Origin: an uncultured Planctomycetia bacterium | GTDB taxonomy: Bacteria; Omnitrophota; Gorgyraeia; Taenaricolales; CAZCCH01 | Direction: 5' to 3' | Length of the DNA: 64,000 bases | Assembly (NCBI GenBank): GCA_964497315.1 | Contig: CAZCCH010000004.1 | Coordinates: 18,307-82,306 of the forward strand | Shown here: in pieces, positions 7,398 through 64,000 of the stretch | How the letters are laid out: each line of letters opens with the position of its first letter | How positions within the stretch are numbered: the first letter of the stretch is position 1 | The notes under the pieces: generated by a model | What the model was told of the DNA's origin: nothing | Databases searched by the model: none | What the model saw: only the letters and a program-made list of their open reading frames with translations | Program-made: the position numbers and the translations under genes

Positions 7398-8071
7398 TTT
7401 TTAAGCTCGTTTATAATCTTTTTTAAATCCTGCCAGGCTAAAATTTTACCGTTTGGATTCCGTAATAAATATGCAGGGTGAAATGTTGGCATGGTCTTTA
7501 TTCCGCGAAAATCACAAAATTTGCCGCGCAATGTAGTAATGGGTTCCTTTTTGCCTAACAAGGCAAACACAGCATGTCTACCAAGACAGCAAATCACCTT
7601 TGGTGCAATAATATCAAGTTGTTTTAGGAGATAACTTCTGCAAATGGCTATTTCCGTAGGAAAGGGGTCGCGATTTTGCGGTGGCCTGCATTTAAGAACA
7701 TTGCATATAAAAACATCTTCTCTTTTTAATTTCATCGCCTCAATCATCTTTGTAAGGAGTTGTCCGGCCCTACCAACAAATGGTCTTCCTTGTTTATCCT
7801 CTTCAAAACCCGGTGCTTCTCCGACAAATACAAGCTTAGCCCCAGGATTACCCTCTCCTAATACAATATGTGACCTGCCCCTATGAAGTTCACATTCTTC
7901 GCAGGATAAAATTTTCTTATGAAATTGTCTTAATTGTTCTGCCTTGCTTTTCTTTGTTTCATTGGTCTTAATCGCTGAGGTATTCTTTAAATGGTACCCC
8001 TTTATTCCTGTTTCTTTTTCAGCAGAGATATAAGCTTTAACAGATTTTATTAACTCTTTGGTTTTCCTCAT
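7394..8071 (-). CDS. Uracil-DNA glycosylase, family 4 (4Fe-4S type).
   Basis: The product is 225 aa. The motif [35 protein letters not shown] matches the family-4 UDG signature GE[GA]PG...F.G.AG. The preceding CEECELHR cysteines fit the Fe-S ligands. Confidence 0.8.
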
Positions 8072-9186
8072 TTGTCCTCAATGGCTAATTCAATAATTCT
8101 TTTTGCAGAATTAGGTTTTGCCAATTTAGAAACACCATTTTTTAATTGCATAAGCTTTGTAGGATCAGTTATAAGTTCGGTGAGTCTTTCTTTTGCCTCT
8201 TTGACGTTTTTTACTTTTACAGCAGCTTGTAATTGCACTAAAGCTTTACAATTACCCGATTCTTGTCCAGGTATCGGTCTTAGCACAATCATCGCAAGAC
8301 CAGATGTAAGTGCCTCTGAGGTAGTCATACCCCCAGATTTACTTATCAACACATCGCTTACGCTCATAAGTTGGTGTATTCTTTCAGTAAATCCAAAAAT
8401 TTTAACCCTGTTGCATGCAGCATATTTCTTCTGTAAGTTTGTAAAAAGTCTTTTGTTTTTACCACAAACTACAATAAAATTAGCCTTCTCTGATACATTA
8501 ACTAATGAATCGGTTAATTTTCCAAGCGGCCCCACACCAAACCCACCTCCAATTATCAAAGCAATAAATAGGTTCTGCTCTAATCCTAGTTGTTTTTTAA
8601 GGGTTTTTTTATCATGGGGTTGTTCAAATTTTGGACTCACAGCTACACCTGTAACAGCTATTTTTTTATAATCAACCCCTCTGTCTATTAAATCCTGCAT
8701 TGTTTTCTCTGCAGCCACAGCATAAGTATCGACCTCCTTAGCTATCCAGAAAGAGTGAACTTTGAAATCTGTTACAGCAGTAACTAAGCGGCAATTGAGC
8801 CTGCCTTTCTGTTTCAAATAAGAAACTATCTCATTAGTCATGAAATGTGTTGCAATAACCACATCAGGTTGATAGTCACAAAGAAAACGTTCAAACTTTT
8901 TTAAGGCACATCCATTTATTAATCGCCTTATGGAGTTCGTTAGCTTATAAATCCTTTGGTTATCAAGGGAATAATAAAAAAATCCCCAGATAAGTGGAAG
9001 ATAATTTATTAAAGTTATATATTGCCTTCCATAGAGCCATTTAAAAAAGTGGCTTGAATAATCAAGCGAATCAATGAGTTTAATGTCATGTTCTGCGCTA
9101 GGTGTAAGTCTAAGTGCTTCATATAAGGCTTCTGCGCACTTTTTATGCCCTGCACCTGCTGAAGCGTATACGATTAAGATTTTCAT
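8068..9186 (-). CDS. MGDG-synthase/UgtP-like glycolipid (diacylglycerol) glycosyltransferase, GT28.
   Basis: The product is 372 aa. The N-terminus MKILIVYASAGAGHKKCAEALYEAL has the GxGH motif of the UgtP/YpfP/MGD family. The C-terminal half has GT-B-type UDP-sugar-binding features. Confidence 0.65.
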   Translation of the reverse strand: MKILIVYASAGAGHKKCAEALYEALRLTPSAEHDIKLIDSLDYSSHFFKWLYGRQYITLINYLPLIWGFFYYSLDNQRIYKLTNSIRRLINGCALKKFERFLCDYQPDVVIATHFMTNEIVSYLKQKGRLNCRLVTAVTDFKVHSFWIAKEVDTYAVAAEKTMQDLIDRGVDYKKIAVTGVAVSPKFEQPHDKKTLKKQLGLEQNLFIALIIGGGFGVGPLGKLTDSLVNVSEKANFIVVCGKNKRLFTNLQKKYAACNRVKIFGFTERIHQLMSVSDVLISKSGGMTTSEALTSGLAMIVLRPIPGQESGNCKALVQLQAAVKVKNVKEAKERLTELITDPTKLMQLKNGVSKLAKPNSAKRIIELAIEDK

Positions 9187-10089
9187 TTATTTTTTTATAA
9201 TTTTAGCAATTTGGCGGATGTGCTCAGGGGTACTACCGCAACATCCTCCGATGATGTTAATCTTTAGATTTAATAATTCCGGCAAGACCTTTGTGAAATC
9301 TTCTGGTGTTTCGGTAAAAATAGTTTTATCATTTTCCAGCTTAGGCATACCTGCATTTGACTGGGCAATAAGAAATATATCGTTTCTTTTTAACTCATCT
9401 AGTCGTTTTCTCATTAATTCTATGACTTTTACCATTTGTTTTATGCCGCATCCACAGTTTGAACCCATTATCTTAACACCCATATCAAGCATCTTATCGA
9501 CTGCCTCATCAGTAGAAACCCCCATCATTGTTTTACAGATGCCCGGTTGAAATGTCATGCTAGCTATCACTGGAAACTCGCTGCCAATGTTTAAGGCGGC
9601 TTCTTTGGCAGCCATAAAGGCTGCTTTTAATTCTCCTAAGTCAGCCATCGTTTCAATAATAATACCATCTACACCGGCTTGTACAAGTATCTCTGCTTGG
9701 TTTTTAAATACGTCAAAAAGTTCTTCGTACTTTAAATTTCCCACGGGTTCTATAAATTCCCCTGTTGGACCTATATCACCAAGCACATAGGTAGAATCTC
9801 CTGTTACTTCTTTAGCTAATTGCACAGCTTTCAAATTAAAGTCACTAAGTTTACCCTCAAGTCCTGCACGTTTTAACTTAAGGCTATTTGCTCCAAAGGT
9901 ATTTGTTGTGATAATGTCACACCCTGCATCAACATAGCTTTTATGGATAGATTTTATAACCTCAGGATGTGATAAATTCCACTCTTCTGGAAAATCACCT
10001 GTCTTTAGGCTTTGCTCTTGCAGGGCAGTACCCATAGCACCATCACAAATTAATACTTCTGACTTTAGCTTCTCTAATAAAGGTTTCAT
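9187..10089 (-). CDS. Stand-alone homocysteine S-methyltransferase (Hcy-binding) domain protein.
   Basis: The product is 300 aa. It has the N-terminal ICDGAMGTALQ and the C-terminal zinc-binding GGCCGSTPEHI motifs of the S-methyl_trans (MetH N-domain / MmuM) fold. Confidence 0.75.
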   Translation of the reverse strand: MKPLLEKLKSEVLICDGAMGTALQEQSLKTGDFPEEWNLSHPEVIKSIHKSYVDAGCDIITTNTFGANSLKLKRAGLEGKLSDFNLKAVQLAKEVTGDSTYVLGDIGPTGEFIEPVGNLKYEELFDVFKNQAEILVQAGVDGIIIETMADLGELKAAFMAAKEAALNIGSEFPVIASMTFQPGICKTMMGVSTDEAVDKMLDMGVKIMGSNCGCGIKQMVKVIELMRKRLDELKRNDIFLIAQSNAGMPKLENDKTIFTETPEDFTKVLPELLNLKINIIGGCCGSTPEHIRQIAKIIKK

Positions 10090-10092
10090 AGG

Positions 10093-10635
10093 TCAGTCCT
10101 TTTTTAAAATAACCTCTTTAACAGCCTGGAACAAATCTTTACATGTTTCATCTGGTTGAAACTCTAAAGTATCTAAATTCTCTTTCTTTGTTTTTCCGGA
10201 AAATACAAGTATCGTCTTGCAACCTAAATTCTTACCAGCCTCAATATCTCTTTCGTCATCACCTATGAAATAAACATCTTTAAAGCCACTGCTGAGGTTA
10301 CCTGCTGCTTGTTTAAAAAGTGTTGTTTTAGGTTTTCTGCAATCACAGTCATCTTTATGGGTGCAATAAAAAACACCCGCTATCTCACCTTTGTTCTCTT
10401 TAAGTCCTGAAAGCATCTTTTGTGTTATTTTATCTAAATCCGCTTGAGTGAAAAGCCCTTTACCGACACCCCTTTGATTTGAAATAACATATATCTTATA
10501 CCCTGCCTCTGTAAGTAGTCTTATTGCCTCAAGAGAACCGTCTATAAAATGGAAATCTTTTGCGTTTGTGACATACTCTCCATGACCAGGATATACATTT
10601 ATTACACCATCTCTATCGAGAAAAATTATCTTCAT
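10093..10635 (-). CDS. gmhB: D-glycero-D-manno-heptose 1,7-bisphosphate phosphatase (HAD-IIIA).
   Basis: The product is 180 aa. It has the HAD motif I FLDRDGVIN and the GmhB-type zinc site CTHKDDCDCRKP. The length fits GmhB. Confidence 0.75.
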   Translation of the reverse strand: MKIIFLDRDGVINVYPGHGEYVTNAKDFHFIDGSLEAIRLLTEAGYKIYVISNQRGVGKGLFTQADLDKITQKMLSGLKENKGEIAGVFYCTHKDDCDCRKPKTTLFKQAAGNLSSGFKDVYFIGDDERDIEAGKNLGCKTILVFSGKTKKENLDTLEFQPDETCKDLFQAVKEVILKKD

Positions 10636-10661: not shown

Positions 10662-11297
10662 TTAGGCTTTAACAGCAATAATATTTAAATTCAAAGCCAG
10701 CTCTTCTCCTGGAAATACTTCATTGTTTATATCTTCTATTTGAAACCCGTTGCGGCCTAACAATTCTTTTATAGTAGCTTTGGTAAAAATATCCTTATGC
10801 AGTTGATAGGGTGAATTCTTTAGCGTGGGGTCACCATGGGTCAACCTATAAACCTCAAAAAGGTCAAATCTTTCACTGGAAATGCCCTTTTCTTGTTTAA
10901 TGTAGGCATCAATAATGGCATCGAAATCTGGGAGCCATTTAATAATAAGACGGCCGCCTTTTTTCAGTATCCTGTGAAAATCCTTTAGTATCTTATCCTG
11001 ACTATATCGGTAGAAATGCTCAAAGACAGCCTCCAACCTTACTTCAGAAGCTATGTCGGAGGGTACAAGATGAAGGTCTTCTGAGACATCCAACGCCGCA
11101 TCTGTGCCTTCTGTAGGGACTATATCTATATTGACGTAGTCTTTTAGCTTTTTATCTCCGCAGCCAATGTAGAGCTTCACGCCATCTTTCAATAAATCTT
11201 CTATCCTGGTCCTTAAAATCCTTTTTCTCCTGCACGAAATCCATGTCCACCTTCGCCAGATCTGCCTGGAATTTTTTGCTATCTTTTTATGCAACAT
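10662..11297 (-). CDS. Class I SAM-dependent methyltransferase.
   Basis: The product is 211 aa. It has the glycine-rich motif I LYIGCGDKKL and motif-post-I acidic residues, in a Methyltransf_11/23-like layout. Confidence 0.6.
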   Translation of the reverse strand: MLHKKIAKNSRQIWRRWTWISCRRKRILRTRIEDLLKDGVKLYIGCGDKKLKDYVNIDIVPTEGTDAALDVSEDLHLVPSDIASEVRLEAVFEHFYRYSQDKILKDFHRILKKGGRLIIKWLPDFDAIIDAYIKQEKGISSERFDLFEVYRLTHGDPTLKNSPYQLHKDIFTKATIKELLGRNGFQIEDINNEVFPGEELALNLNIIAVKA

Positions 11298-11344
11298 GGC
11301 TGCACCTTTTGGTTTTTGTCATCATTTTCATATTTGGCTCCATT

Positions 11345-12820
11345 TTAAAGGGGTAATGTTCCTTGGTTACTACTATATTTCTTTCGTATCGCAGGTAATA
11401 CTTCCTCACGGGTTCGCTTTAAATCATGGATTGTGTCATTATCATTCCAGAGAAGTCCAGTTATGCTTTCGATGCACAGCCTGTGCCCTTTGAACACCAG
11501 ATGTTCAAATGCTTCCATAAGGTACGCCCAGGCATTGCCTTCTCTTATTATTCTGTCTATCTCATTTATCAAAACCGCGGCCCCCCATCGGTTAAACTTG
11601 GCAATACCGATGAATTCACCGTAGGCCTTATCGGAAGATATGCATTTATGCTTCGGGAAGGGCAAAGAATAGTAGTCTTCCGGAAGGGTCATTATATTCC
11701 CTGCCGCGCAGATCTTTTCATCTTCCTCGTCACAGGCCTTTTCGTCTGCCCCCAGCACAATTTCATTAGGGTTTCTGATAATTTTTTTCAATATCTCGGG
11801 CTCAAAAATTATATCCCCATATATGACTATAAAACCCTTATGTAAAAATTCGCGTACGAGCCAAAACGTAATTAACATATTTGAACTCTCGTACCAGGGA
11901 TTATATACTATATTGATATCCGTCTTCTTTAGTTTCTCGTAAACAAAATTACGCACAAGGGCATCTCCCTTGCCAGTTGCGATGATAATATCCTCATCGT
12001 GAATATTGCATTTTTTAAACGCATCTAACTGTGTTTCTAAGATAGTTGTTCCTCCTGCATCCACTAAGCAGGTGTGGTGGGTTGCAGTCAAAGCACCCAT
12101 CCCCAAAGAAGGACCGGCAGAAAGAAGCACTATCTTGTATTTATCCTCCAGTTCTCTTATTATTTTTTTTACTATATCTACAGAGTGCTGGGAATACTCG
12201 CCGATGGCCGTTTCTTCGGAAAGCATGATAAAATCGGAACCGTCGGAAATAGCGTTGGCTATATCTACTACTTCTGACTTTGTAGGTTCTGATTTCTCTA
12301 CCATGGACAGAAGGAACTCCGTAGCTACAATTACCAGTTTCCCCTGTCTATTGCATTTACGTATAATCCTCTTCTGCGCATGCGGCAATTTCTCTATGCC
12401 TATTGCCGTAGCCAAATCTCCCCTGTCTATCATCACTACATCAGAGAAAAAAATAATGTTATCTAAATCTTCCAGCGCCTCGGCAGTTTCTATTTTGGCT
12501 ACAATCTTTATGTCAAGTCCTTTGAATTGATTCCTGAATTTTTCTACATCCTTATGGTGCTTAACATATGACAGGGCCACATAGTGTGGATTTATTTGTT
12601 TTGTTAGCCTAAGCAGATCTTCAAATGATAAGTTGTTAGTCCGAGTCTTTTTTCTTTCAGTAGGCAAGTCTAATAATAACTGATACCCCCATGCATCTTT
12701 TATTTTAGCTGCCAGGCTATGTATTTCTTCTTTCGTTCCAAAAGCACAGTTTATCCTGCCCACATCTATTCCCTGTAGTTTTTCTGTGTAAGGACTAACA
12801 GTTGAAATTATTTTGACCAT
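11345..12820 (-). CDS. Fusion protein: pyruvate-kinase-like TIM-barrel (PEP-binding) domain (N) plus LicC/MobA-like nucleotidyltransferase domain (C).
   Basis: The N-terminal ~240 aa align to the PK barrel (IVAKIETAEALEDLDNII..MIDRGDLATAIG; VIVATEFLLSM; PTKSEV.DIANAISDG.DFIMLSEETAIGEY, compared with PK MLSGETAKGKYP). They lack the PK B- and C-domains. The C-terminal ~240 aa carry an NTP-transferase glycine loop LLSAGPSLGMG and a LicC-like NPWYESSNMLITFWLV....IVIYGDIIF segment. Confidence 0.55.
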   Translation of the reverse strand: MVKIISTVSPYTEKLQGIDVGRINCAFGTKEEIHSLAAKIKDAWGYQLLLDLPTERKKTRTNNLSFEDLLRLTKQINPHYVALSYVKHHKDVEKFRNQFKGLDIKIVAKIETAEALEDLDNIIFFSDVVMIDRGDLATAIGIEKLPHAQKRIIRKCNRQGKLVIVATEFLLSMVEKSEPTKSEVVDIANAISDGSDFIMLSEETAIGEYSQHSVDIVKKIIRELEDKYKIVLLSAGPSLGMGALTATHHTCLVDAGGTTILETQLDAFKKCNIHDEDIIIATGKGDALVRNFVYEKLKKTDINIVYNPWYESSNMLITFWLVREFLHKGFIVIYGDIIFEPEILKKIIRNPNEIVLGADEKACDEEDEKICAAGNIMTLPEDYYSLPFPKHKCISSDKAYGEFIGIAKFNRWGAAVLINEIDRIIREGNAWAYLMEAFEHLVFKGHRLCIESITGLLWNDNDTIHDLKRTREEVLPAIRKKYSSNQGTLPL

Positions 12821-12825
12821 AACTT

Positions 12826-13983
12826 TCAGCCTTTCCCAGTGAGAATGTCAGTAATACACCGAGCTGCTATATCTGAAGACTGCCCGAAGGCATATATACT
12901 CTCATTCCTAAGCTGGGCAATGCGTTGTCTATTGGTGTCAGTATGTGCAATTAACCTGGAGATAACCTTAGGCACCATATCTAGTTTGTCCGGAACAACT
13001 ACCTCTCCTATTTCAGAACGGATAGAAACCTCTAACGGCTCAAGTCCCAATTCTTTATAATTGGGGTTTTTGGCCGCAACAGGTACATCAATAGAAATAA
13101 CCGGTTTCTCAGTACCAAAGGCATATTCAAGAGCAACACCTGAGTAGTCGCATATCAGACAGTCAGCACGAATCAGCGAATCATCAGTGGCTACGGATTT
13201 CTCCAAGATGAAATGCGGGTTTGATCCAAATTTAAAAACAAGCGAGGCTATTAACTCCGGAGAACGCTTTGTGGTTTCTGGATGCGGCCTCATAATTACT
13301 GCAAAACCTGCTTTTAAGAGTATGTCGGTCAGGCGCTCACCGCAGCTTTCGAGAAGATTACTATCTCCCCACGAAGGCGCAATAAGAACCATTGTCTTTT
13401 CCTCCGAAGATAAATCCTTTGCCGATAAGTATTTTTGATACGCAGCATAGATTCGTTCCAGCCGGTAATATCCACCTTCAAGGAGCTTTTTGGATTTTAG
13501 CCCAGCAAGTTCCTCACGCCTGCGAATTTCTTTCATGTGGTAGGGGCCAGGGCACAATATATAGTCATAATGATCATAAGACCCTTCGCGGAATTTCATA
13601 TGCGTGCTGGCGAGGGAGTGAAAAATATAAACATACTGGACCGGATTGTATGAGCGTTTAAGGTGAAACTGATTGAGGTCAGTCAGGGTAATAACAAAAA
13701 CCCTGCAATTTACAAAGAGCATAAAAACAGCAAGTAATTTGTCTAGGTAAAAGGCATTTATCTTCTCTGTCTGTTTTTCAAAAATCGGGTCGTTAAAATC
13801 TGAGGTAATATAACATAGGTTTCGACTGTATTTTTCCGTAAGCTCTGCAATTACACCCTCAAAGTAGGGGTAATAACCCTCGTGTTCTGAATAAAAAATT
13901 ATTTCCTTTTTCTTTATCGGTGTCCTGAAGAAAAACCTACAGAAATCTGCAATTTCTCGAAAAAAATTGGATGTGCGATACAA
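12826..13983 (-). CDS. TagB/TagF-family CDP-alcohol (CDP-glycerol-type) phosphotransferase.
   Basis: The product is 385 aa. Glyphos_transf-like motifs include VLIAPSWGDSN (compared with ILYAPTWR) and IMRPHP (compared with KPHP). The size and layout match teichoic acid primases and polymerases. Confidence 0.6.
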   Translation of the reverse strand: MYRTSNFFREIADFCRFFFRTPIKKKEIIFYSEHEGYYPYFEGVIAELTEKYSRNLCYITSDFNDPIFEKQTEKINAFYLDKLLAVFMLFVNCRVFVITLTDLNQFHLKRSYNPVQYVYIFHSLASTHMKFREGSYDHYDYILCPGPYHMKEIRRREELAGLKSKKLLEGGYYRLERIYAAYQKYLSAKDLSSEEKTMVLIAPSWGDSNLLESCGERLTDILLKAGFAVIMRPHPETTKRSPELIASLVFKFGSNPHFILEKSVATDDSLIRADCLICDYSGVALEYAFGTEKPVISIDVPVAAKNPNYKELGLEPLEVSIRSEIGEVVVPDKLDMVPKVISRLIAHTDTNRQRIAQLRNESIYAFGQSSDIAARCITDILTGKG

Positions 13984-14062
13984 TTCTCACAACTCCTTTT
14001 TTATGGTATTTTATCCTTCAACTTCTATTTCTAAAAAAGACAGCATGTCACAAGTGTGTTTT

Positions 14063-17285: not shown

Positions 17286-17300
17286 ATCGTCAATCCTGTT

Positions 17301-19214: not shown

Positions 19215-20192
19215 TTATCTTTTATACAAATAAAAGCATGCCGAATCGCCTTCTGCCTTTTTGTTGAGCTCAACGGCTGCACTGTCGAAATCCTTTATTT
19301 GTCTTTCTGAAAAAATAGACGCCTGAGGACTTACATAATAAGACTTGCTGTCCCTGAGGGGTATATCCCTACGGTATTGCTCACTACCCCAAAATTGAAA
19401 TGCAGTTGAGTCAAACGTAATATTCCTAAGTTCTAAACCTGTTTGTTCTGCTAAGATTTGAATACTTTTGGGTGTATGTAAAAAAAGATGACGCGGTACA
19501 TCAAGTTGAACCCAATCAACACCATATTTCCTCCATGCAAAACACCCAGATACGGGTGTCTTAATCAAAATACACCCCTTGGTCTCCAATCGGAGATATA
19601 ATTCCTTAAATACAGCTAAAGGTTCCTGCATGTGCTCAAAAGAATCGTGTAGCATAATAAAATCAAACTGTCCTTCTAGTTCGAATATAGACTTTTTAAA
19701 AATCCTTACACTGTTCTCATAGTGGATATCATCTCTGATAAAAGGATCTATCCCAGTAAGATTTGAAAATCCATATTTTGCTAGTTCGAGAAGGAGGCCT
19801 CCCCCGCCGCAACCTATATCCAGGATTTTTGACTCAAATTTTACTTTTGACATCCTTAGCCAATCAAAATAATGAGGTTTTTTCCTTCCAATAGAAAGCA
19901 ATATACCTATAAGGTTTTTCTCATAAAGCCAATACCTTGCCCTTTGGTGTCTGCGAAATCTTTTAAAAAAATTAGGCCTAGAATAATTTAACCCTTGAAA
20001 CGAATAGTAATCTTTGGGATAGTATTTCGTTGGGTTAGTTAGAGCTTCTTTTATCTGCAAGCATCCACATTTTGCACATTCAAAATATTCAAATTTATCT
20101 CTATAGCCAAACATCATTTCTTGTACGATGTAGGATTTATTATTGCTTACATTATTACATATTTTACAAATAGATATATCGCTTTGACTCAT
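19215..20192 (-). CDS. SAM-dependent methyltransferase with N-terminal zinc-ribbon (Methyltransf_13-like Zn domain plus class I MTase).
   Basis: The product is 325 aa. A CKICNN..(27 aa)..CAKCGC four-Cys ribbon is followed by the ILDIGCGGGGLLLELAK motif I. This layout is typical of NDP-sugar C- and O-methyltransferases. Confidence 0.6.
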   Translation of the reverse strand: MSQSDISICKICNNVSNNKSYIVQEMMFGYRDKFEYFECAKCGCLQIKEALTNPTKYYPKDYYSFQGLNYSRPNFFKRFRRHQRARYWLYEKNLIGILLSIGRKKPHYFDWLRMSKVKFESKILDIGCGGGGLLLELAKYGFSNLTGIDPFIRDDIHYENSVRIFKKSIFELEGQFDFIMLHDSFEHMQEPLAVFKELYLRLETKGCILIKTPVSGCFAWRKYGVDWVQLDVPRHLFLHTPKSIQILAEQTGLELRNITFDSTAFQFWGSEQYRRDIPLRDSKSYYVSPQASIFSERQIKDFDSAAVELNKKAEGDSACFYLYKR

Positions 20193-53444: not shown

Positions 53445-53457
53445 AACTGCCCACTTT

Positions 53458-56671: not shown

Positions 56672-57473
56672 ACCATCTCATGCGATCTAAAAAACGTTCG
56701 TGACTCCCCCTTATATCAAAATCAATCTTCGAAAAATTTCTTACTAGTTCACTTGCTGCCTGTTTTGTATAGACCTTTGTTACAGGGTTTGCCCTGCCAT
56801 CGCTAACCCTTATTGCATATTGCGTAAGATCTTGCCAAGAAAACACGCTAACATCTTTTTTAATATCTTTTACGGAAGGCTTTAATCTGGCAATTAAATC
56901 TATCGTTGCGTTAGGCAGCAATTTAATTAAGAGGTATTTGAGCCGTAGTCTTACCAAAACATCCCAGTAATAAAAAATTGAATTTTTGTAATAAAGCATC
57001 AGGATGGCGTCGCCTCCTTTTTTTAAAACCCTGTAAATTTCATCTGCCGCCTTCTGAGTATCTACGGTATGGTGAATAACCCCGAGTGAATAGATCCTGT
57101 CAAAGGTATTATTTCCGTAAGGAAGATTTTCTGCATCGGCCTGCATAACCCTTGCTTTTTTGCCAAAGGTTTCAAATCGTTTTTTTGTAATAGAGGTTGA
57201 TCTAAAATTAAAATCAAGCGCGTAAAATTCCTGTGCGTAACTAGCCATTTTTAATGAGTGGCTCCCCATGCCACAACCTACCTCCAGAACTCTTTTATCG
57301 AAACAGCTACCATACTGCAGTATGGATGAATAAGGATATAACCTCTCAATAAGTTTATCATGCGTAAGGAAAAATTCATGCGTGCCTTCTTTAAGCTCGA
57401 TTCGATCAAAAGAACAGGGATTTTTATTCCAGAATTCTTTCACTCTGTTTTTTAGCAAGTTTTTTTTCTTCAT
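56625..57473 (-). CDS. Class I SAM-dependent methyltransferase.
   Basis: The product is 282 aa, with the motif I VLEVGCGMGSHSLKMA. Confidence 0.6.
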   Translation of the reverse strand: MKKKNLLKNRVKEFWNKNPCSFDRIELKEGTHEFFLTHDKLIERLYPYSSILQYGSCFDKRVLEVGCGMGSHSLKMASYAQEFYALDFNFRSTSITKKRFETFGKKARVMQADAENLPYGNNTFDRIYSLGVIHHTVDTQKAADEIYRVLKKGGDAILMLYYKNSIFYYWDVLVRLRLKYLLIKLLPNATIDLIARLKPSVKDIKKDVSVFSWQDLTQYAIRVSDGRANPVTKVYTKQAASELVRNFSKIDFDIRGSHERFLDRMRWFEKRFGFFLYIFLEK

Positions 57474-57574
57474 TTTGAATTACATTTAAACCTTTTACAT
57501 ATTCCAGCAAAAACCGAATTCTTTAATTAGACTAACGCCTGCGCGTTTCTTAAGGACTACCTATGATTTCTGGC

Positions 57575-59014
57575 TTAATGCAACAGGGAATATCCATAAT
57601 GTTTGACTCTATCCTTCCACCAACCGGCAATCTCATTCGGCAAGGCTACCCAGGCATTCTCTTTTGATAAATACTCCAGTATGTTTTTATAGACTTCAAT
57701 CCACCCGGGATATGCCTTAGTATCCCAAACCCTTAAATGCCACAGTATGCACGCAAAGCCGTTAAACTCTTTAATCTTCTCTAAAATCTGTATACATTTT
57801 CTTGTGGCTTCTTCGACTCCAAAATTTAATTCCATAAATAACGCGCTATCCATTATCACAAGTGGTAGCTCCAGAATCATATGCGCTCTTTTTAATGTCC
57901 GGTTATAAGGAAAAAATGGGAAGGCCGCTCCAGCACGGAAACCAAGGGCCTCATTATAGCCTAAAGACATATCATATTCAATACCGCTCTCGCGTTGGAC
58001 ATCCCAAGTTTTTTGATAGTCCAACCTGAGATAATGCTGACAAATACCTCCTACTTTATTCTTGATCACTCTTTCAAGCATATTCTTTTCTTCGGACAAT
58101 TTATCCTTATCAAGATAGCTCTCGTAGCTTCCGTGCAGACCTATTTCCCATCCACGTGCCTTTATTAATTCCATTATCTTAATAATTCTTGAATTATATA
58201 TCGAATATGTTGGATCATAAAGAATATTGCCCTGGTCAATTAAGGATGCAAAATTAAAAATAGACTTAAATCCGTATTTCCCCTCAAGTTTAATATAATC
58301 CTGAAAATTACAATATGGGTCTTTCAACTTAAAAGCTTTGTATATGAAACCCCAGATTATATGCTTGGTAGCCTGCTTTATTCCTTTAAACTTGTGTGCA
58401 TAACGCTTGAGCATATTAAGGCCTGAGTAAATATCTCCCTTAAATGGCTGATCCACATCATGTATAAGGCAAACTGAGAATTTCTTATTATCTTTATTTA
58501 AAGCTGTATAATCAAACTCCGCAGGAAACAATTTATCTAAAAGCTGCTTGAGAAGAAACGCGTAACTATTGACTACTGGAAAATCCAAAACTCCTAATTT
58601 TTTTAAAATTGTATAATTTCCAGAAAAACACCCCCAGGTATCGCGCCTTTTGTCTAACCTTTCTTCCTCGCGAGATAATAAATAAAAACTAGCTGCAATG
58701 ATATCAAATGTCAGATTGATTGCCTCATCTTCATAAAAATAAAGCGAGTCTCGTTTGGGCTTTTCTACGTACATTACAGGTATTCCATCTCGCCAATCTA
58801 GGGAAGGTTGATTCTCTAGCCATTTTTGATAATTGTCCGATGGAATTCCGATAGACTTCTCTTTGGCTTTGTAGCCATAACACAGGTGAGCCTTTTCATC
58901 GTCTCTTACAATTTTAAAACAAATACCCAGAACATAACCGTAGGTTTGGAAAATATATCTTGCCTCTTTTGCAAATGATAACTCTGGGTTAATTTTTACG
59001 TTTATAGTCTTCAT
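57575..59014 (-). CDS. ArnD/NodB-like polysaccharide deacetylase-domain protein, paralogue of the C-terminal module of 29308..31422.
   Basis: The product is 479 aa. It has CLIHDVDQPFKG and IGLHGSYESY motifs, colinear with the C-terminal domain of the 704-aa fusion. Confidence 0.5.
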   Translation of the reverse strand: MKTINVKINPELSFAKEARYIFQTYGYVLGICFKIVRDDEKAHLCYGYKAKEKSIGIPSDNYQKWLENQPSLDWRDGIPVMYVEKPKRDSLYFYEDEAINLTFDIIAASFYLLSREEERLDKRRDTWGCFSGNYTILKKLGVLDFPVVNSYAFLLKQLLDKLFPAEFDYTALNKDNKKFSVCLIHDVDQPFKGDIYSGLNMLKRYAHKFKGIKQATKHIIWGFIYKAFKLKDPYCNFQDYIKLEGKYGFKSIFNFASLIDQGNILYDPTYSIYNSRIIKIMELIKARGWEIGLHGSYESYLDKDKLSEEKNMLERVIKNKVGGICQHYLRLDYQKTWDVQRESGIEYDMSLGYNEALGFRAGAAFPFFPYNRTLKRAHMILELPLVIMDSALFMELNFGVEEATRKCIQILEKIKEFNGFACILWHLRVWDTKAYPGWIEVYKNILEYLSKENAWVALPNEIAGWWKDRVKHYGYSLLH

Positions 59015-60018
59015 GCGTCCTTATACATAAATTTTCTATATACCCTCTTCAATGACTGTACTCCTTTAGATCTTAAGCTCATAGCTTTGCTTATCTGGTA
59101 ATGCGGGATAAGCCTGACTCCAAACGTACTTTTGTAATCTGCTATGGTCTCTATATCTGCGCCCACGAAGTCTGTAATTGAATAATGCGGGGTTATTTTT
59201 TCCAAAATTTCCTTTACTATAAGCTGGTTGCCTCCAGTATTTAACAGTTGTGGATTGGAAGCAGCCATCCAATAAAAAAGCCTGTCATCATCTATTAAAA
59301 GAATTGCTCCGGAAATAACTCTATTATCTCTTGTTTTTGCTAAAAGCAGCTTGATGGATGATTTAGCAAAAAGATCTTTAAAAAAATCTAAAAATTTATC
59401 TTCGTCAAGATTTATGCATATTTTTTTCTTGCTAAACATTTGCTTCCATAAAATATAAAACTCTTTTATATCTTTGCTGTCTTCAATAAATACCCCATTA
59501 TCATGGGCATAAGCAGCTCGTCTTTCGATGTCTCTGCTGAGAGGTATTTCGTCGTTTTTGTTTCTGTAGTAAGTATATCGGACCGCGGTAGACCACCTCC
59601 TCCATATAAATGGCCTTATGTCCAAAAATCCTGGAGAATTAATAATAGTTACATAATCAAAGTTGTCTTCCAGGTAATCAATAATGCCATTCGATATGTC
59701 TTTGACATCGTTTTCAGACTTATAGTTATACTTTAGTGCTTTCAGCTCCACAATCAGGCCATTATATGGCGTAAGAAAAGGAACTTCTGCTATTCTGCCT
59801 TCCAGAGATTGCCTTACTCTTAAGCAACATCCCCCTACAATTCTCTCTCCTGAATAACAACACACAATCTTGAGATTTTGATTTGTCGCATGAGCAAATG
59901 AATCATTCCATAAAGATGAGTAAAATATTGGGCTTTTCGAATGTTGTTTAATAAAGTCTTCCCATCTGTCTAAGTCTTTACTTTGCAATTCTTTTACTAT
60001 ATATTTATTAGAATTCAT
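59011..60018 (-). CDS. Putative GNAT-fold FemAB/Acetyltransf_6-like (BioF2-like) acyl- or aminoacyl-transferase.
   Basis: The product is 335 aa. This is a weak family-level match only, resting on size, predicted fold pattern and the frequent presence of this family in exopolysaccharide loci. Confidence 0.3.
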   Translation of the reverse strand: MNSNKYIVKELQSKDLDRWEDFIKQHSKSPIFYSSLWNDSFAHATNQNLKIVCCYSGERIVGGCCLRVRQSLEGRIAEVPFLTPYNGLIVELKALKYNYKSENDVKDISNGIIDYLEDNFDYVTIINSPGFLDIRPFIWRRWSTAVRYTYYRNKNDEIPLSRDIERRAAYAHDNGVFIEDSKDIKEFYILWKQMFSKKKICINLDEDKFLDFFKDLFAKSSIKLLLAKTRDNRVISGAILLIDDDRLFYWMAASNPQLLNTGGNQLIVKEILEKITPHYSITDFVGADIETIADYKSTFGVRLIPHYQISKAMSLRSKGVQSLKRVYRKFMYKDA

Positions 60019-60938
60019 AGGACCTTATAGCTCTCAAAAAGCAAGTTATGATCTTGGCATCCAACCAACAATCTATTCTTCTTCATCGATATTATGTCGC
60101 CTATCTCTGATTCCTTTTTACCCAAATCACGTTTTATTATCCTGGGTTCTCCGACCAGTATTTTTCTGTTATTCGAGATAATATAGGTTTTAACAAACGG
60201 TGTTGATGCCCTGAAACATCTGCAAATATCTGCAGCGGATTTATTCAAGTCAAGAAATTGGTCTTCGACATTTTTATAATATGACTCCCTGTCCTTGCCC
60301 TGCGCTATCCGTTTAACACTACCATTGGCAATAGAATTTAAAACTGAGCGTACGTTCCTACCTGCTAATTTGGCACATTTCTCTGCGAGGCTGCCTGCTG
60401 TATCATTAATATCTATACTAACCTTATCTTTCAATATAATGTCACCTGTATCTATGCCAAGATCTATATAATGGAATGTAAAACCTGTTTCTTGCTCATC
60501 GTTAATTATGATCCAATAAAAGGGGTTGGGACCCCTGAATTTCGGTAGTAATGACGGGTGGCAATTTATGCATCCATAACGCGGAAAGTTTATCAGGGTG
60601 CTTGATAATCTTTCTTCCCAGCCTGCAACTAAAATTAAATTCACATGCTTCCTTTCCAGTAAGTGGCGAAATGAAGGACTATTAGTGGACTCAGTAATAA
60701 TTATAGGAACTTTAAAACGGGTCACAGCTGCATACAACTTATTACTTCTAAAATTAAAGCGTAGTTTTAGAAATAAAGAAATTCGGAATAAGGTTTTGCG
60801 AATCACACTAATCTTGAAACGTACAGCATAACTTTTAGGAATGAGAAATGTTATGCCCTTTACATTATGTCCTGAAGTCACGATGGGATCGATTAAATAT
60901 CTGGCCCATTCAACGCCAAAGAATAAAACAATATTCAT
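60015..60938 (-). CDS. Formyltransferase-domain protein (ArnA-N / sugar N-formyltransferase-like).
   Basis: The product is 307 aa. The core CHPSLLPKFRGPNPFYWIIINDEQETGFTFHYIDLGIDTGDIILK aligns to the formyl_trans_N motif, with the catalytic His and Asp. The N-terminal ~90 aa are atypical. Confidence 0.65.
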   Translation of the reverse strand: MNIVLFFGVEWARYLIDPIVTSGHNVKGITFLIPKSYAVRFKISVIRKTLFRISLFLKLRFNFRSNKLYAAVTRFKVPIIITESTNSPSFRHLLERKHVNLILVAGWEERLSSTLINFPRYGCINCHPSLLPKFRGPNPFYWIIINDEQETGFTFHYIDLGIDTGDIILKDKVSIDINDTAGSLAEKCAKLAGRNVRSVLNSIANGSVKRIAQGKDRESYYKNVEDQFLDLNKSAADICRCFRASTPFVKTYIISNNRKILVGEPRIIKRDLGKKESEIGDIISMKKNRLLVGCQDHNLLFESYKVL

Positions 60939-61669
60939 CTCACCTTCCTAAATAATAGCACCATCTCTGAAAAATCCTGCCTAAATAATGAATTAAAAGA
61001 ACTTGGGATTTTATTTGCGGAAATAAAAAGGTTATATCCACAAAATGGGCATATCGTGCGCATTGGCCTTCTCTCTGATCTATTGAAAACAATCTGTTTC
61101 AGACGCATTGTCAGATCATGCAATTTAAAACGTGGTGGTTCGCAGTACTTGAAATCCAAAAGTTCAAAATTTGGAAAAATTTCCAATATACTATCCTTGG
61201 TAAAACTCCTTGCGTGCCAGTTTAAATGAAATACCTCACCACATCCGGGACACTTTGTGGTGTTTAAGGTTATATCCTCGTTGTTGGGTACATTAATAAG
61301 TATATATTTGCTACTTAGTGCCTGCACCTGACTTATGACCCTGGATAAAAGCTCATCGCTTAAATGTTCTAGGATATCGCTCAGTAAAATTAAATCAAAT
61401 GTGCCCTTCTTGAACGGGAGATTCTCTGCGGCAGCCTGTAATTTCTTTGCTTGTACATGTATCAATGCCTCTATGCTAAAATCGATAGCGACAACATCAA
61501 ATCGTTTTGCTAATGGATTACATATGATACCGTCACCGCACCCAACATCAAGTACGGTTTTCACATCATCCGGTATAGTAAGGTTAATAGCATTTAACCT
61601 GCTTACCTCATGATCACCTATCTCTGCAGCGCTTTTCCCATCGCGAGGCAAGTCATAGTATGTCAGCAT
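60935..61669 (-). CDS. Class I SAM-dependent methyltransferase.
   Basis: The product is 244 aa. It has the motif I VLDVGCGDGIICNPLAKRF and C-terminal CxxC pairs (CPGCG...CPFCG). Confidence 0.6.
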   Translation of the reverse strand: MLTYYDLPRDGKSAAEIGDHEVSRLNAINLTIPDDVKTVLDVGCGDGIICNPLAKRFDVVAIDFSIEALIHVQAKKLQAAAENLPFKKGTFDLILLSDILEHLSDELLSRVISQVQALSSKYILINVPNNEDITLNTTKCPGCGEVFHLNWHARSFTKDSILEIFPNFELLDFKYCEPPRFKLHDLTMRLKQIVFNRSERRPMRTICPFCGYNLFISANKIPSSFNSLFRQDFSEMVLLFRKVR

Positions 61670-62628
61670 AATGATTTCTCTCGATTATTAATTAGATCAA
61701 ACTGCAATGACTGTTTTAACCTCCAAAAAAACCACATCCTATAAATAGACATCTTCTCTCTCATAGTTTTATCATGCGGAGACCATCTATCTGCAGCACC
61801 CTTAAAGGCTTCCTCTCTTGTGATATCGTAAAGGGATAACAATAGGCAAAAATTAAATTTATTATACATTCTATCCGACAATTTTTTTCCAGGATAATAC
61901 CAACTCCACAAGTTATTAAAATTCCAAATAGATATCTGCCTGGTTAGGGTATTAATGCCTTCATCAAACAAAATTTTTGCTCGGCTGGAATTTGTGTATT
62001 TAAATGCATCGTATAAACCCAATAGAGCGACCAAAAAACCGTCTAATATGCGTACTGAATCATTGGTGCCATGATATTCTTCATAAAATACAAGTCCTTC
62101 TCTTTTAGACTTCACGCCACCATCTCTTACTTCTGTCTCAAATAAATTTAAGATATTCTCAAAATCCTCAATATATCTTTCATCATTTTTAAGTCTATAA
62201 ACCCTACTCAATAAACTTAACGCCATGCCATGACCCATAGCTGATATCCAAGGAGGCGTAAGTAAAATTCCGTCTTCCACCCAAGGATAGTCATGAGCCC
62301 AAAAACAACCCCTCTTATTATCTCTCGAAACATTTTTTATAAGCCAATCTGCTTGCTTATAGGTTTTTCTAAGCCATTTTTCTGACTTATTTTTCAAATA
62401 GCTCTGCAAGCAAAATATTCCCCATATAGCAACAAATAAATAGTTTCGCTGGACTCCAATAGGAGATTTGTATTTTCTTAAAGGAATTTTATCTTCATCG
62501 AAAGTCAGGTGAAAATAATCTGCAACATCCATGCCTGTAAAGTCAACATAATAATTTATGTCTCCTGATGCATCTGACACATGTAAGGGAAAATCTAAAT
62601 TTAGGTAATTTCTGAGCATCTTAAGCAC
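61663..62628 (-). CDS. D-glucuronyl C5-epimerase C-terminal-domain homologue (C5-epim_C).
   Basis: The product is 321 aa. WISAMGHGMALSLLSRVY matches metazoan GLCE WISAMAQGQAIS.LVRAY. YEEYHGT...ILDGFLVALLGLYD matches YEEYPTT..VLNGFMYSLIGLYD. RWSPHD matches RWKSY. Confidence 0.55.
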   Translation of the reverse strand: MLKMLRNYLNLDFPLHVSDASGDINYYVDFTGMDVADYFHLTFDEDKIPLRKYKSPIGVQRNYLFVAIWGIFCLQSYLKNKSEKWLRKTYKQADWLIKNVSRDNKRGCFWAHDYPWVEDGILLTPPWISAMGHGMALSLLSRVYRLKNDERYIEDFENILNLFETEVRDGGVKSKREGLVFYEEYHGTNDSVRILDGFLVALLGLYDAFKYTNSSRAKILFDEGINTLTRQISIWNFNNLWSWYYPGKKLSDRMYNKFNFCLLLSLYDITREEAFKGAADRWSPHDKTMREKMSIYRMWFFWRLKQSLQFDLINNREKSLC

Positions 62629-63731
62629 GCCGGGTATACTCCATTTCTTTTTAACTTTTTCCTAAAATCACGGAAATTGCTATTATTCCATATAAATCTA
62701 AAGCTTGACTTATGGATATTTCCAAAAACAACATTAAAGCAACGCATTCTAGGGATTACTTCACCTCTTGCTGTAATCTGCGCCATAACCCAAGGAGACT
62801 GACACCTACTGCCATCATATAGAACTTTTTCCGGATCGCAATAATAAGTACCTAAAAGATCTCTACTAAGTATCTTAGTATAAATCCTAATTCCTGAGGC
62901 CCTCCCCAGTTTCTTAGCATCTTTTAACTGCTGTAAAAGTACGGGGATATCAATTCTGTCCAAATCTTGACCATTAATACCACTCTTAGAAACAGTAATA
63001 TCAGGGTGCTTTAAGTTATGTTTCTGTGCAACCTCCTCAGTTATAAAGTTTAAATGCGAAAAAGTAATTGAAGATAACCCTTTTTCCTTTATAGCTTCTA
63101 CTGTTTCTACTAAATTATGAAAATTTGAGTTTGAAATCGTATATATTATGTGCATTTTAGGACTTCGAATGCCGTATTGTTTTTTAAAGTGCTTTATTCT
63201 TTCAATGCCATCTAGGATTTGTTCATATATCCCTATTTTTCCGCGAATTTTCTCATGCACGGCCTTTGTGCCATCTAGTGAAATAAAAATATCGTCAAGC
63301 TTTAATTTTACAAGTGACTCTGCATGCCTGACCAAAAACACCCCATTTGTCGTCAGGCTGCAATGCAACACATTCTCTTTTACATAACCGACAATTCTGG
63401 CTATATCAGGGTGCAAGAGAGGTTCACGAGAAGTCAAAGAGATTGAAGGTTGGAAAAATTTCACGTTATCAACTATATTCTTAAAGTTATCAAATGAAAG
63501 AATTGCGTTTTCGCTTACGGTTCCGGCGTTTTTTGTAAAGGTAGAACTTGGCAAATTCTTAGCCGCATCGCACATCTCGCATCTTAAATTGCAAGTGGTA
63601 TTAACGGCTATGAATAATACTGATGGGGATAAAGCGCGCCCGTTACCAAGATAGTAAAACACTCTTTTATTTAATTCGTACCTAGCTTTGGAATAAAGCT
63701 TACCGTAATTGATATTAATGAGTTTACGCAT
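62601..63731 (-). CDS. Radical SAM enzyme (SPASM/twitch-like C-terminal Cys).
   Basis: The product is 376 aa. It has the N-terminal cluster motif NTTCNLRCEMCD and the C-terminal cysteines CQSP....CLRCSE. Confidence 0.75.
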   Translation of the reverse strand: MRKLININYGKLYSKARYELNKRVFYYLGNGRALSPSVLFIAVNTTCNLRCEMCDAAKNLPSSTFTKNAGTVSENAILSFDNFKNIVDNVKFFQPSISLTSREPLLHPDIARIVGYVKENVLHCSLTTNGVFLVRHAESLVKLKLDDIFISLDGTKAVHEKIRGKIGIYEQILDGIERIKHFKKQYGIRSPKMHIIYTISNSNFHNLVETVEAIKEKGLSSITFSHLNFITEEVAQKHNLKHPDITVSKSGINGQDLDRIDIPVLLQQLKDAKKLGRASGIRIYTKILSRDLLGTYYCDPEKVLYDGSRCQSPWVMAQITARGEVIPRMRCFNVVFGNIHKSSFRFIWNNSNFRDFRKKLKRNGVYPACLRCSEIT

Positions 63732-64000
63732 GATATGAGCTAAATAAGTTTGTGCATCTGTAACCAGCTGGAAATAGTTTGTTTTTCCTAAGGCGCTTTC
63801 TAAATTCTTTATACGGCTTGCCTAACCATATATCTTTGAAATCTTTTTCATTTACATTGCCCATTTTTAAGCCGAAACACTTAAAGCCTGGCGTCACATC
63901 GCCATTGGGTAATAGCCAACAGTATTTCCACGGATAATAACAGCGGTTAAAATGGCTTACCGGCTCTAGGTGCTTTTTATAATAGGTGATGAGGTCATCG
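63724..64000 (-). CDS. C-terminal SPASM-domain fragment of a further radical-SAM-type protein (gene continues beyond the window end).
   Basis: The reverse-complement frame reads ..CYYPWKYCWLLPNGDVTPGFKCFGLKMGNVNEKDFKDIWLGKPYKEFRKRL..RCTNLF..*. Its stop overlaps the start of the 62601..63731 gene. It is not in the ORF track because it has no in-window start. Confidence 0.5.
   Translation of the reverse strand, partial: DDLITYYKKHLEPVSHFNRCYYPWKYCWLLPNGDVTPGFKCFGLKMGNVNEKDFKDIWLGKPYKEFRKRLRKNKLFPAGYRCTNLFSSYHA

Follow-up and report, generated by a model that had tools for sequence, protein, structure and literature searches.

The window analysed here, a stretch of 64,000 nt from the metagenome contig CAZCCH010000004.1, is occupied almost entirely by genes read in one direction, most of which encode enzymes of the kind that build envelope glycans. 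A first-pass annotation had described positions 8068 to 64000 as one co-directional megacluster without strand switch or insertion. In our listing the window is tiled from 165 to 63731 by 52 open reading frames (ORFs) of at least 100 aa (g1 to g52, chosen by a longest-ORF rule). All 52 lie on the minus strand, so the unbroken orientation noted earlier stands, and each plus-strand ORF of the listing is situated opposite a minus-strand ORF of the tiling set. The coding fraction of the window is 0.990. 21 of the 51 junctions are overlaps, 12 of them of the 4-nt ATGA/GTGA type that had already been pointed out and two of a 1-nt type; the spacing is ≤15 nt at 39 junctions and ≤47 bp at 48. The longest-ORF rule creates several large apparent overlaps (-38 and -68 nt) that are artefacts; in the gene calls of the source the ATP-sulfurylase g14 has 381 aa and g30 has 335 aa. 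The three largest gaps (101, 79 and 73 bp) are found exactly where the first-pass annotation had placed them (Table 1). A tRNA scan of the window gave no hit, Rfam at gathering thresholds gave no family, and no transposase or integrase domain was found with Pfam in any of the window products.

Functional assignments were made with Pfam and NCBIfam profiles, and bit scores were compared with the curated cut-offs. In the direction of transcription the genes fall into successive blocks (Table 1). Block g52-g47 comprises a radical-SAM/SPASM enzyme, a C5-epimerase-like protein, a methyltransferase, a sugar-type formyltransferase (g49), a FemAB/VimA-like acyltransferase (g48) and a VimE-like DUF7033 deacetylase (g47). 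It is followed in g46-g39 by a methyltransferase, an AsnB-type amidotransferase (g45), a GT4 glycosyltransferase, a GT1 protein with DUF218 (g43), a Wzy_C membrane protein (g42), an ArnC/GtrB-like polyprenyl-phosphate sugar transferase (g41), a further methyltransferase and a B12-radical-SAM enzyme. The order in g38-g26 is WbpS-like amidotransferase, GFO dehydrogenase, GT4, SDR epimerase/dehydratase, WecA/MraY-CoA_binding_3 fusion, GT4, GT9 (heptosyltransferase-II-like), farnesyl/geranylgeranyl diphosphate (FPP/GGPP) synthase, WbpB-like dehydrogenase, hexapeptide N-acetyltransferase, DegT aminotransferase, Glyco_trans_1_2 and MsbA-like ABC exporter. In g25-g17 we found a 704-aa GT2, two B12-radical-SAM enzymes, a PpgS-like protein (g22), an ArnT/PMT_2-like GT-C (g21), a double GT2, a GT2, a B12-radical-SAM enzyme and a methyltransferase. 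Block g16-g11 encodes a membrane protein of the sulfatase/alkaline-phosphatase family, a type I phosphodiesterase-family protein, an ATP-sulfurylase (g14), a TagF-like glycerophosphotransferase (g13), a pyruvate-kinase (PK) half-barrel fused to an NTP-transferase (g12) and a weak methyltransferase match.

Table 1. Positions of gene blocks and of the largest intergenic gaps in the window
Feature	Positions	Strand	Basis or content
g52-g47, amino-sugar N-acyl remodelling block	57575..63731	minus	Pfam/NCBIfam; four consecutive 4-nt or 7-nt overlaps
g46-g39, variable cassette	46997..57473	minus	Pfam/NCBIfam
g38-g26, syntenic backbone	31448..46962	minus	Pfam/NCBIfam; synteny in L099, L100, L101
g25-g17, decoration block	19215..31422	minus	Pfam/NCBIfam
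g16-g11, island with high GC at third codon positions	10662..19199	minus	GC at third codon positions, Pfam, NCBIfam
g10-g8	8068..10635	minus	GmhB-like heptose bisphosphate phosphatase, homocysteine S-methyltransferase, monogalactosyldiacylglycerol (MGDG)/diglucosyl-diacylglycerol-synthase-like GT28
g7-g1, housekeeping genes	165..8071	minus	UDG, PriA, Fmt, two GalT-like HIT proteins, GAPDH, PGK; 4-nt overlaps to glycan genes
Largest gap, 101 bp	57474..57574	minus	between g47 and g46; no terminator-like and no strong promoter-like match
Second gap, 79 bp	13984..14062	minus	within the island, ATP-sulfurylase and TagF-like genes on either side
Third gap, 73 bp	37810..37882	minus	between GT9 gene (g32) and polyprenyl synthase gene (g31)

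In total the window holds 15 glycosyltransferase-like genes (more than ten had been claimed), four B12-radical-SAM genes, one radical-SAM/SPASM gene and four to five class I methyltransferase genes. Paralogues of these repeated enzyme types are only 27-41% identical, which rules out recent duplication as their source. Both profile collections confirm the envelope-glycan content of the first-pass annotation, with a WecA-type initiator, nucleotide-sugar tailoring, an exporter, Wzy_C, methylation and radical-SAM enzymes. The clustering of biosynthetic and housekeeping genes described there is likewise found, the counts being 45 from 8068 onward and seven rather than 46 and eight; the housekeeping genes, thought to lie upstream, are located at low coordinates and hence downstream in the direction of transcription.

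The conservation of these genes was examined in loci around homologues of the initiator gene g34 in 80 genomes. Four phyla, Omnitrophota, Nitrospirota, Acidobacteriota (Pyrinomonadaceae) and Desulfobacterota, share a core of four genes (g38-g36-g35-g34, i.e. AsnB-type amidotransferase, GT4, epimerase and WecA fusion), which is kept in about 70 loci. In Omnitrophota loci g33, g32 and g43 often lie nearby, and g31-g26 were mostly undetected within 10 kb in the more distant members. Homologues of g43 with 46-55% identity are located upstream of the core in L007, L009, L011, L012, L014 and L099, the intervening genes being different. The three close FPP synthase homologues that were looked up, with 62%, 48% and 45% identity, all share the context found in the window. 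One comes from the same water column, another lies on a 372-kb contig and the third belongs to Omnitrophica CG1_02_43_210; the common order is GT4-epimerase-WecA-GT4-GT9-polyprenyl synthase-(GFO-hexapeptide)-DegT-Glyco_trans_1_2-(GT4)-ABC exporter. The backbone from g36 to g26 has the same order and strand in L099, L100 and L101, with 55-81% identity of the syntenic genes in L099. In these three relatives the synthase gene overlaps the GT9 gene by 4-10 nt; the polyprenyl synthase therefore belongs to the backbone, and the 73-bp gap at this junction in the window is not a conserved unit boundary.

The position on the chromosome is conserved as well. On the 372-kb contig (k141_67083) the backbone has the orientation seen in the window and lies upstream of pgk at a distance of about 38 kb, as compared to about 36 kb in the window. 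At the 3' end the order MGDG_synth-UDG-PriA(-Fmt) is kept in L087, L095 and L106, and in L095 and L106 GmhB lies immediately upstream without the homocysteine methyltransferase. A PriA scan of metagenome contigs returned only 12 loci, all of them distant, with identities of at most 45% along most of the protein. Two are informative for the GmhB-MGDG_synth-UDG-PriA junction; the others show mixed strands and probably stem from other phyla. As one block, the gene order is not kept in relatives, and about 30 genes outside core and backbone vary; L099, for example, carries NeuB, CTP_transf_3 (CMP-sugar synthetase) and Polysacc_deac_1 in place of the Wbp genes. The first-pass annotation had named scattering of the sub-blocks in close relatives as one observation that would speak against it. 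The backbone of about 12 genes and its chromosomal position are not scattered, but the other cassettes are swapped. The array is thus assembled from modules of differing evolutionary depth, a cross-phylum core of four genes, a backbone shared by close lineages, variable cassettes, and one cassette that was probably acquired laterally; position and backbone are conserved and the remaining fill is not.

The initiator fusion itself (g34, 40083-41867) recurs with 40-53% identity across the four phyla of the core (L005-L084) and almost always adjoins the same epimerase, GT4 and AsnB-type genes. Its nearest genomic loci, at about 50% identity, are found in metagenome-assembled and single amplified genomes of Omnitrophota. 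The protein scores 110.8 bits for PF00953 Glycos_transf_4 (cut-off 27), matches ECA_wecA at 1e-29 and has CoA_binding_3 at the C-terminus, a domain that normally forms the N-terminal part of WbaP/WcaJ-type transferases.

Neither 8068 nor 64000 turned out to be a boundary, as genes on the same strand continue past both. On the source contig (L085) eight more same-strand genes follow beyond 64000 up to the contig end, seven of them of glycan type, and extend block g52-g47: two radical-SAM/SPASM genes, a Wzx-like flippase gene, an Epimerase_2 gene (UDP-GlcNAc-2-epimerase family), two hexapeptide transferase genes, a GT1 gene and one for a 116-aa protein without recognised domain. At the other end, 4-nt overlaps connect the MGDG-synthase-like gene to UDG and UDG to PriA, and PriA and fmt overlap by 1 nt. 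Downstream of pgk the same strand carries tpi, secG, two TPR genes and oppABCDF (14 of 14 genes in this flank are co-directional). The run therefore spans about 15 unrelated housekeeping genes downstream of the glycan genes, and measures at least about 81 kb with about 68 genes.

Co-orientation of this kind is also found in relatives. Windows of about 21 kb around pgk were co-directional for 22 of 22, 22 of 22 and 22 of 23 genes in three Omnitrophota (L105, L106 and L107), and contain genes for replication, translation, glycolysis, glycogen, peptide transport and the tricarboxylic acid cycle next to antitoxin and response-regulator genes. In the window the GC skew at third positions of the coding strand is +0.11 and the overall GC skew never reverses its sign, which fits a single replichore on which every gene is co-oriented with replication. 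A literature search on strand bias in Omnitrophota yielded no paper. Uniform orientation and 4-nt overlaps mark a compact, co-oriented chromosomal region, a property of the region or of the lineage, and are no signature of a single operon. Since unrelated housekeeping genes are joined by the same orientation and overlaps, these features carry no information on co-regulation.

In L105 (contig k141_67083, 2184-5736) extra genes interrupt the PriA-Fmt-GalT stretch. A MazE-like antitoxin gene, small unknown ORFs and genes for a methyltransferase and a response regulator are inserted on both sides of Fmt, towards PriA and towards the GalT-like genes. None of them departs from the common strand; inserted genes, too, adopt the prevailing orientation.

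Size, co-orientation and compactness had been taken by the first-pass annotation as a sign of tightly coordinated expression of one glycan, and this step fails. The same features join the MGDG-synthase-like, UDG and PriA genes, fmt, galT, gap, pgk, tpi, secG, TPR and opp genes, so the same evidence would equally predict that glycolysis, primosome and LPS (lipopolysaccharide) genes form one operon. An operon definition based on same-strand genes with short or overlapping junctions applies to the array, yet applies to unrelated housekeeping genes too. Promoters and terminators were searched for with sigma-70 and intrinsic-terminator patterns between 1 and 60 kb and compared with shuffled sequences; promoter types of Omnitrophota may differ from these patterns. 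Neither promoter-like nor terminator-like counts were above those of the shuffles, and between 20 and 40 kb promoter-like sites were rarer than expected. None of the three large gaps offers a persuasive signal. The 101-bp gap holds a short hairpin, AACGC-GCAG-GCGTT, without a T-run, and the 79-bp gap a single weak promoter-like match, TTTAGA-16-TAAAAT at 14035-14008. Judged by these scans, transcription units are not definable from promoter-like and terminator-like patterns. We predict that expression probably proceeds from several units with promoters inside coding sequence.

The view that the array of at least 56 kb works as a single functional unit (a super-operon or a small number of tightly coupled operons), in which co-orientation and translational coupling serve the coordinated synthesis of one elaborate glycolipid or glycan, nevertheless has several observations on its side. 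The strand never switches, 99% of the sequence is coding, 4-nt overlaps occur at 12 junctions, and no terminator-like site lies within any gap. Genes for all stages are present (initiation, tailoring, glycosyltransferases, flippase or ABC exporter, ligase), backbone order and chromosomal position are conserved among relatives, and where the window has its 73-bp gap the genes of relatives overlap. We consider this view unlikely. Beyond the equally tight joining of unrelated genes, which recurs in the housekeeping stretches of relatives, synteny beyond the species is limited to between four and about 12 genes, other cassettes are exchanged between relatives and one block is compositionally foreign. 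The content moreover indicates several acceptors or products, with a core heptosyltransferase, two polyprenyl-phosphate-sugar units, a TagF-like module and a diacylglycerol glycolipid synthase.

The compositionally foreign block is g11-g16. GC content at third codon positions (GC3) is 0.40-0.45 in these genes versus 0.27-0.38 in the other 46; the six highest values of 52 are contiguous, which by chance would occur at 47/C(52,6), or about 2e-6. The nearest ATP-sulfurylase relatives (70% identity) were found on contigs of GC 0.46 from the same samples, flanked by TagF-like and PK+NTP_transf_3 genes. A homologue with 50% identity adjoins a TagF-like gene in another glycan locus, and other matches at about 50% come from many phyla. 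At the homologous position the island is missing in relatives: in L106 two epimerase genes abut GmhB, in L095 a g20-like GT2 gene does. We looked for signs of mobility and found neither integrase, transposase nor tRNA, and flanking direct and inverted repeats at chance level only. Deviant GC3 together with absence in relatives leads us to read g11-g16 as a substituent cassette that was probably acquired laterally. The earlier statement that the array contains no insertion is doubtful in view of this GC3 outlier block, which the closest relative lacks at this position.

A step in GC3 may also arise when an assembly or a bin joins different genomes, and related cassettes do occur on other contigs of the same samples. 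Such a chimera is highly improbable here and was rejected. Identical PGK, ATP-sulfurylase and polyprenyl synthase sequences, representing both ends and the middle of the window, occur on seven to eight contigs from independent samples and assemblers (the longest one listed for each being 89,832 bp). JGI contigs of 62.9 kb and 73 kb from different samples both cover stretches of the window, and the island is bordered on both edges by short intergenic spacers of an ordinary kind. Identical proteins were found on metagenome contigs from several marine samples, including the 72,999-bp JGI contig that contains the window. All named top matches of PGK (65-75% identity) belong to Candidatus Omnitrophota, including Ca. 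Gorgyraea atricola.

Three of the island genes (g12, g13 and g14; 11345-15247) recur as a module in glycan loci of different organisms and in differing orders. All three are adjacent in L102 (1055-4622) and L103 (3-3615), and L104 (8626-10822) has the TagF-like/ATP-sulfurylase pair only. In g12 it is the C-terminal half of the pyruvate-kinase barrel that is fused to the NTP-transferase domain. The module might produce an unusual phospho- or sulfo-substituent in nucleotide-activated form and transfer it; we know of no described pathway with this composition.

The feature described by the first-pass annotation is real and not statistically trivial, and its functional label is right. Taken together, we regard it as likely that the array is a composite, modular locus for an LPS-type glycan (core plus O-antigen-like) within a uniformly oriented, compact chromosome region of a marine Candidatus Omnitrophota. 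Its predicted content is modular and combines genes of the LPS core with a sugar pathway of Wbp/Vim type, two polyprenyl-phosphate-sugar/GT-C units for decoration and a cassette for a phospho-substituent. Cytoplasmic enzymes of Wbp/Vim type would make a 2,3-diamino-2,3-dideoxy-uronic acid, using the 3-dehydrogenases g30 and g37, the DegT aminotransferase g28 and the hexapeptide N-acetyltransferase g29. The AsnB-type enzymes g38 and g45 would amidate the uronic acid, after which g47 would de-acetylate it and g48 and g49 would re-acylate or formylate it. The chain would be started on polyprenyl phosphate by the WecA/MraY-type g34, extended by GT4 and GT2 enzymes, and decorated by class I methyltransferases and B12-radical-SAM enzymes. 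It might cross the inner membrane through the Wzx-like flippase encoded just upstream of the window, through the MsbA-like g26, or both, and be polymerised or ligated by the Wzy_C protein g42. Two units of polyprenyl-phosphate-sugar synthase plus membrane transferase (g22/g21 and g41) are candidates for periplasmic decorations, and the GT9 protein g32 and GmhB (g10) would provide the link to a heptose-containing LPS core.

The scores behind these assignments differ. For the core genes, g32 reached 127.7 bits with PF01075 and 127.5 bits with heptosyltransferase II (cut-off 134.6), and g10 168.3 bits with GmhB (cut-off 178). The best model for g26 is MsbA_lipidA (528.8 bits, cut-off 602), with other ABC exporter families scoring nearly equal. 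The WbpB-like g30 and g37 match UDP-GlcNAc 3-dehydrogenase at 184 and 172 bits (cut-off 450), g38 the eps_aminotran_1/WbpS family of XrtA/PEP-CTERM amidotransferases at 655 bits (cut-off 817), g47 VimE at 2e-42 and 145 bits (cut-off 440) and g41 ArnC at 219 bits (cut-off 529); g48 is weakly FemAB-like, with a weak pepcterm_femAB match. The PpgS-like polyprenyl-phosphate-sugar synthase g22 adjoins the ArnT/PMT_2-like GT-C g21. g42 is the sole protein with a Wzy_C domain (39.2 bits, cut-off 31.7), which fits a ligase or a polymerase. The flippase gene encodes a 425-aa Polysacc_synt/Polysacc_synt_3 protein on the same strand (L085, 4249-5526), about 2.3 kb upstream of the window end and about 2.5 kb upstream of the g52 start codon. 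The polyprenyl synthase g31 had been read as the supplier of the lipid carrier; it is of IspA type, an FPP/GGPP synthase (238 bits, cut-off 275), and not an undecaprenyl-diphosphate synthase of the cis-prenyltransferase type. WbpA (UDP-GlcNAc 6-dehydrogenase) was not seen in window or flanks, which do contain the upstream Epimerase_2 gene. No Wzz-type Pfam match, the sign of a chain-length regulator of the polysaccharide co-polymerase class, was obtained among the 52 window proteins or the flanking calls; such a gene may lie elsewhere.

Several points weigh against the composite LPS-type reading. Most equivalog-level NCBIfam scores lie below their curated cut-offs, and both enzyme specificities and pathway steps are taken from family membership only. 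WaaA, LpxA-D, GmhA, HldE, WbpA and Wzz are not in the window, and HldD was likewise not found there. The Wzy_C domain of g42 does not separate ligase from polymerase, and no second candidate was found. As for the chromosomal setting, the pattern scan between 1 and 60 kb gave zero minus-strand terminator-like sites in intergenic gaps, and very long polycistrons would be just as compatible with the gaps of ≤47 bp found at 48 of the 51 junctions. Strand bias was sampled in pieces of about 21 kb around pgk and around the glycan core rather than in whole genomes, and strand switches occur at some Omnitrophota loci (L006, L011), so that co-orientation in this phylum is a strong tendency with exceptions. 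Constraints on amino-acid usage or expression, rather than transfer, could in principle account for the island, although GC3 argues against that.

A different product is conceivable as well. The array could mainly serve an exopolysaccharide (EPS) or capsule, or a glycan that modifies or anchors surface proteins, as in PEP-CTERM/exosortase EPS systems or with the Wbp/Vim linking sugar of type IX secretion in Porphyromonas. The best match of g38 at 655 bits is indeed the XrtA/PEP-CTERM amidotransferase family, g36 matches the stp2 PEP-CTERM glycosyltransferase (191 bits), g43 matches TuaH/stp3, and pepcterm_femAB is found weakly in g48. In its C-terminal half g34 is similar to the N-terminal region of phosphoglycosyl transferases of the EPS type, and in P. 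gingivalis the VimE and VimA pair that g47 and g48 resemble makes a protein-linking sugar (PMC7468200). All these scores, however, remain below the curated cut-offs, and neither an exosortase, a sortase-like protein, a Wza/Wzc pair nor a gene for type IX secretion (T9SS) was found in the window or in 17 kb of flanks. GT9 and the MsbA-like exporter lie inside the conserved backbone, with GmhB and Wzy_C elsewhere in the array, which points to LPS and makes a product of the EPS or protein-anchoring kind improbable.

A more far-reaching variant of the LPS-type locus seems to us the least probable of the functional readings, being slightly more doubtful still than a single unit or a protein-linked glycan. 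On Omnitrophota chromosomes, stretches of at least 80 kb with co-oriented and translationally coupled glycan and housekeeping genes would be read as a few giant heterogeneous polycistrons, and the locus would build an unprecedented LPS. Its diamino-uronamides would be N-formylated or aminoacylated and C-methylated or rearranged, with a phosphodiester or sulfate substituent and possibly an anchor for surface proteins. The agents would be the four B12-radical-SAM and three SPASM enzymes together with the hitherto undescribed module of PK-half-barrel/NTP-transferase, ATP-sulfurylase and TagF-like protein, and the anchoring is modelled on the Wbp/Vim sugar of Bacteroidota.

The four B12-radical-SAM genes (20229-21668, 26471-29311, 46997-48442) are 27-36% identical to one another, and their best matches are HpnJ and BchE, all far below cut-off. 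HpnJ is a hopanoid-associated protein thought to rearrange a sugar ring. The four enzymes could remodel sugars and not merely methylate them. Three consecutive radical-SAM/SPASM genes, g52 and two upstream (L085, 5540-8961; window 62601-64000), one of which is cut by the window end, stand directly downstream of the Wzx-like flippase gene. Such a trio beside a flippase gene is unusual for a polysaccharide locus.

By comparison with described systems, the composite LPS-type locus appears to be of a kind already known, the large unidirectional O-antigen/LPS loci represented by Pseudomonas wbp, Bordetella wlb and Leptospira rfb. The B-band wbp cluster of P. aeruginosa O5 and the wlb cluster of Bordetella are Wzx/Wzy-dependent O-antigen loci that make di-N-acetylated 2,3-diamino-uronic acids. 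Like these, the array has a WbpB-like 3-dehydrogenase, a WbpE-like aminotransferase, a WbpD-like acetyltransferase, a WbpI-like 2-epimerase (upstream of the window) and an AsnB-type amidotransferase, as well as an SDR gene beside a WecA-family initiator gene (as WbpK/WbpL), GT4, Wzx and Wzy_C, all co-directional. In contrast to wbp and wlb, which it exceeds three- to fourfold in length, it shows no WbpA, WbpM or Wzz in the part seen, and contains GT9, GmhB, an MsbA-like exporter, FPP synthase, four B12-radical-SAM and three SPASM enzymes and the TagF-like/ATP-sulfurylase cassette; its initiator is fused to CoA_binding_3. The Wbp steps and the enzymology of the Wbp/Vim pathway in Porphyromonas are summarised in PMC7468200. 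With Porphyromonas gingivalis and Tannerella forsythia the array shares a VimE-like gene beside a FemAB/VimA-like gene, Wbp genes and a WbpS-like amidotransferase gene, and in Pseudomonas mosselii, Aeromonas and Vibrio, too, vimA and vimE neighbour full sets of Wbp genes (PMC7468200). In contrast to P. gingivalis, the matches are below cut-off (VimE 145 vs 440 bits), no T9SS or sortase-like partner was seen, a formyltransferase and a methyltransferase gene separate the VimE/VimA-like pair from the epimerase gene, and the genes are clustered here and scattered there.

The rfb locus of Leptospira is a very large O-antigen locus with nearly all genes on one strand. The array resembles it in being very long, compact and essentially unidirectional with conserved and variable blocks (serovar-variable in Leptospira), but belongs to another phylum with another gene set, rfb having rhamnose and fucose genes and a MarR regulator at its 5' end, and the unidirectional run in Omnitrophota also takes in flanking housekeeping genes. 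The role of rfb is in LPS biosynthesis (PMC10958091). Within Omnitrophota itself, a hyper-variable O-antigen/capsule cassette of about 26 kb has been reported on a chromosome (bioRxiv 10.64898/2026.05.20.726742). Its O-antigen ligase, LPS exporter, heptosyltransferase II, multiple glycosyltransferases and signs of exchange or variability have putative counterparts in the array, but it has Etk/Wzc, AlgI/AlgJ and an association with a mobile episome. The array extends further, and neither kinase nor mobile-element genes were seen there. Analogues of the enterobacterial arn operon (pmrHFIJKLM) can also be listed, with ArnB (DegT, g28), ArnA (g49 plus the SDR g35), ArnC (g41, 219 bits), ArnD-like (g47) and ArnT (g21, weak). 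They are spread over 40 kb, lie far below equivalog cut-offs and come without ArnE/F. An arn-type operon for lipid A aminoarabinose was rejected on the grounds of these scores and of the dispersed genes, and the likeness more likely reflects the generic logic of a polyprenyl-phosphate-sugar synthase combined with GT-C decoration.

Omnitrophota are abundant, mostly uncultured and very small, and some are thought to be attached to or to prey on other cells. Surface chemistry is likely to be central to such a lifestyle, and the window offers a nearly complete parts list of a predicted LPS-type glycan for the phylum. It separates a conserved backbone (WecA-CoA_binding_3 fusion, GT4, GT9, embedded FPP synthase, Wbp genes and MsbA-like exporter) from the other genes, which are exchangeable cassettes. 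Unusual elements are the many radical-SAM enzymes, the FPP synthase embedded in the locus, the WecA-CoA_binding_3 fusion and the module of PK/NTP-transferase, ATP-sulfurylase and TagF-like protein. For this genome co-orientation, 4-nt overlaps and tiny gaps are unusable for deducing functional linkage, and synteny in relatives is needed instead; since unrelated housekeeping genes are joined just as tightly, adjacency or overlap is no proof of such a link.

Between the genes for GmhB and the MGDG-synthase-like protein, g9 (9187-10089) encodes a stand-alone homocysteine S-methyltransferase of the MetH N-terminal type, which is absent at this place in L106. It may support a methyl cycle for the SAM- and B12-dependent enzymes or may be a passenger; g9 and the ATP-sulfurylase gene g14 are at most indirectly glycan genes. 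Among the housekeeping genes, g3 and g4 (2378-4434) are tandem GalT-like genes of the HIT family, 48% identical and located between fmt and gap, and the pair is kept at the same position in all three Omnitrophota relatives examined (L105, L106, L107).

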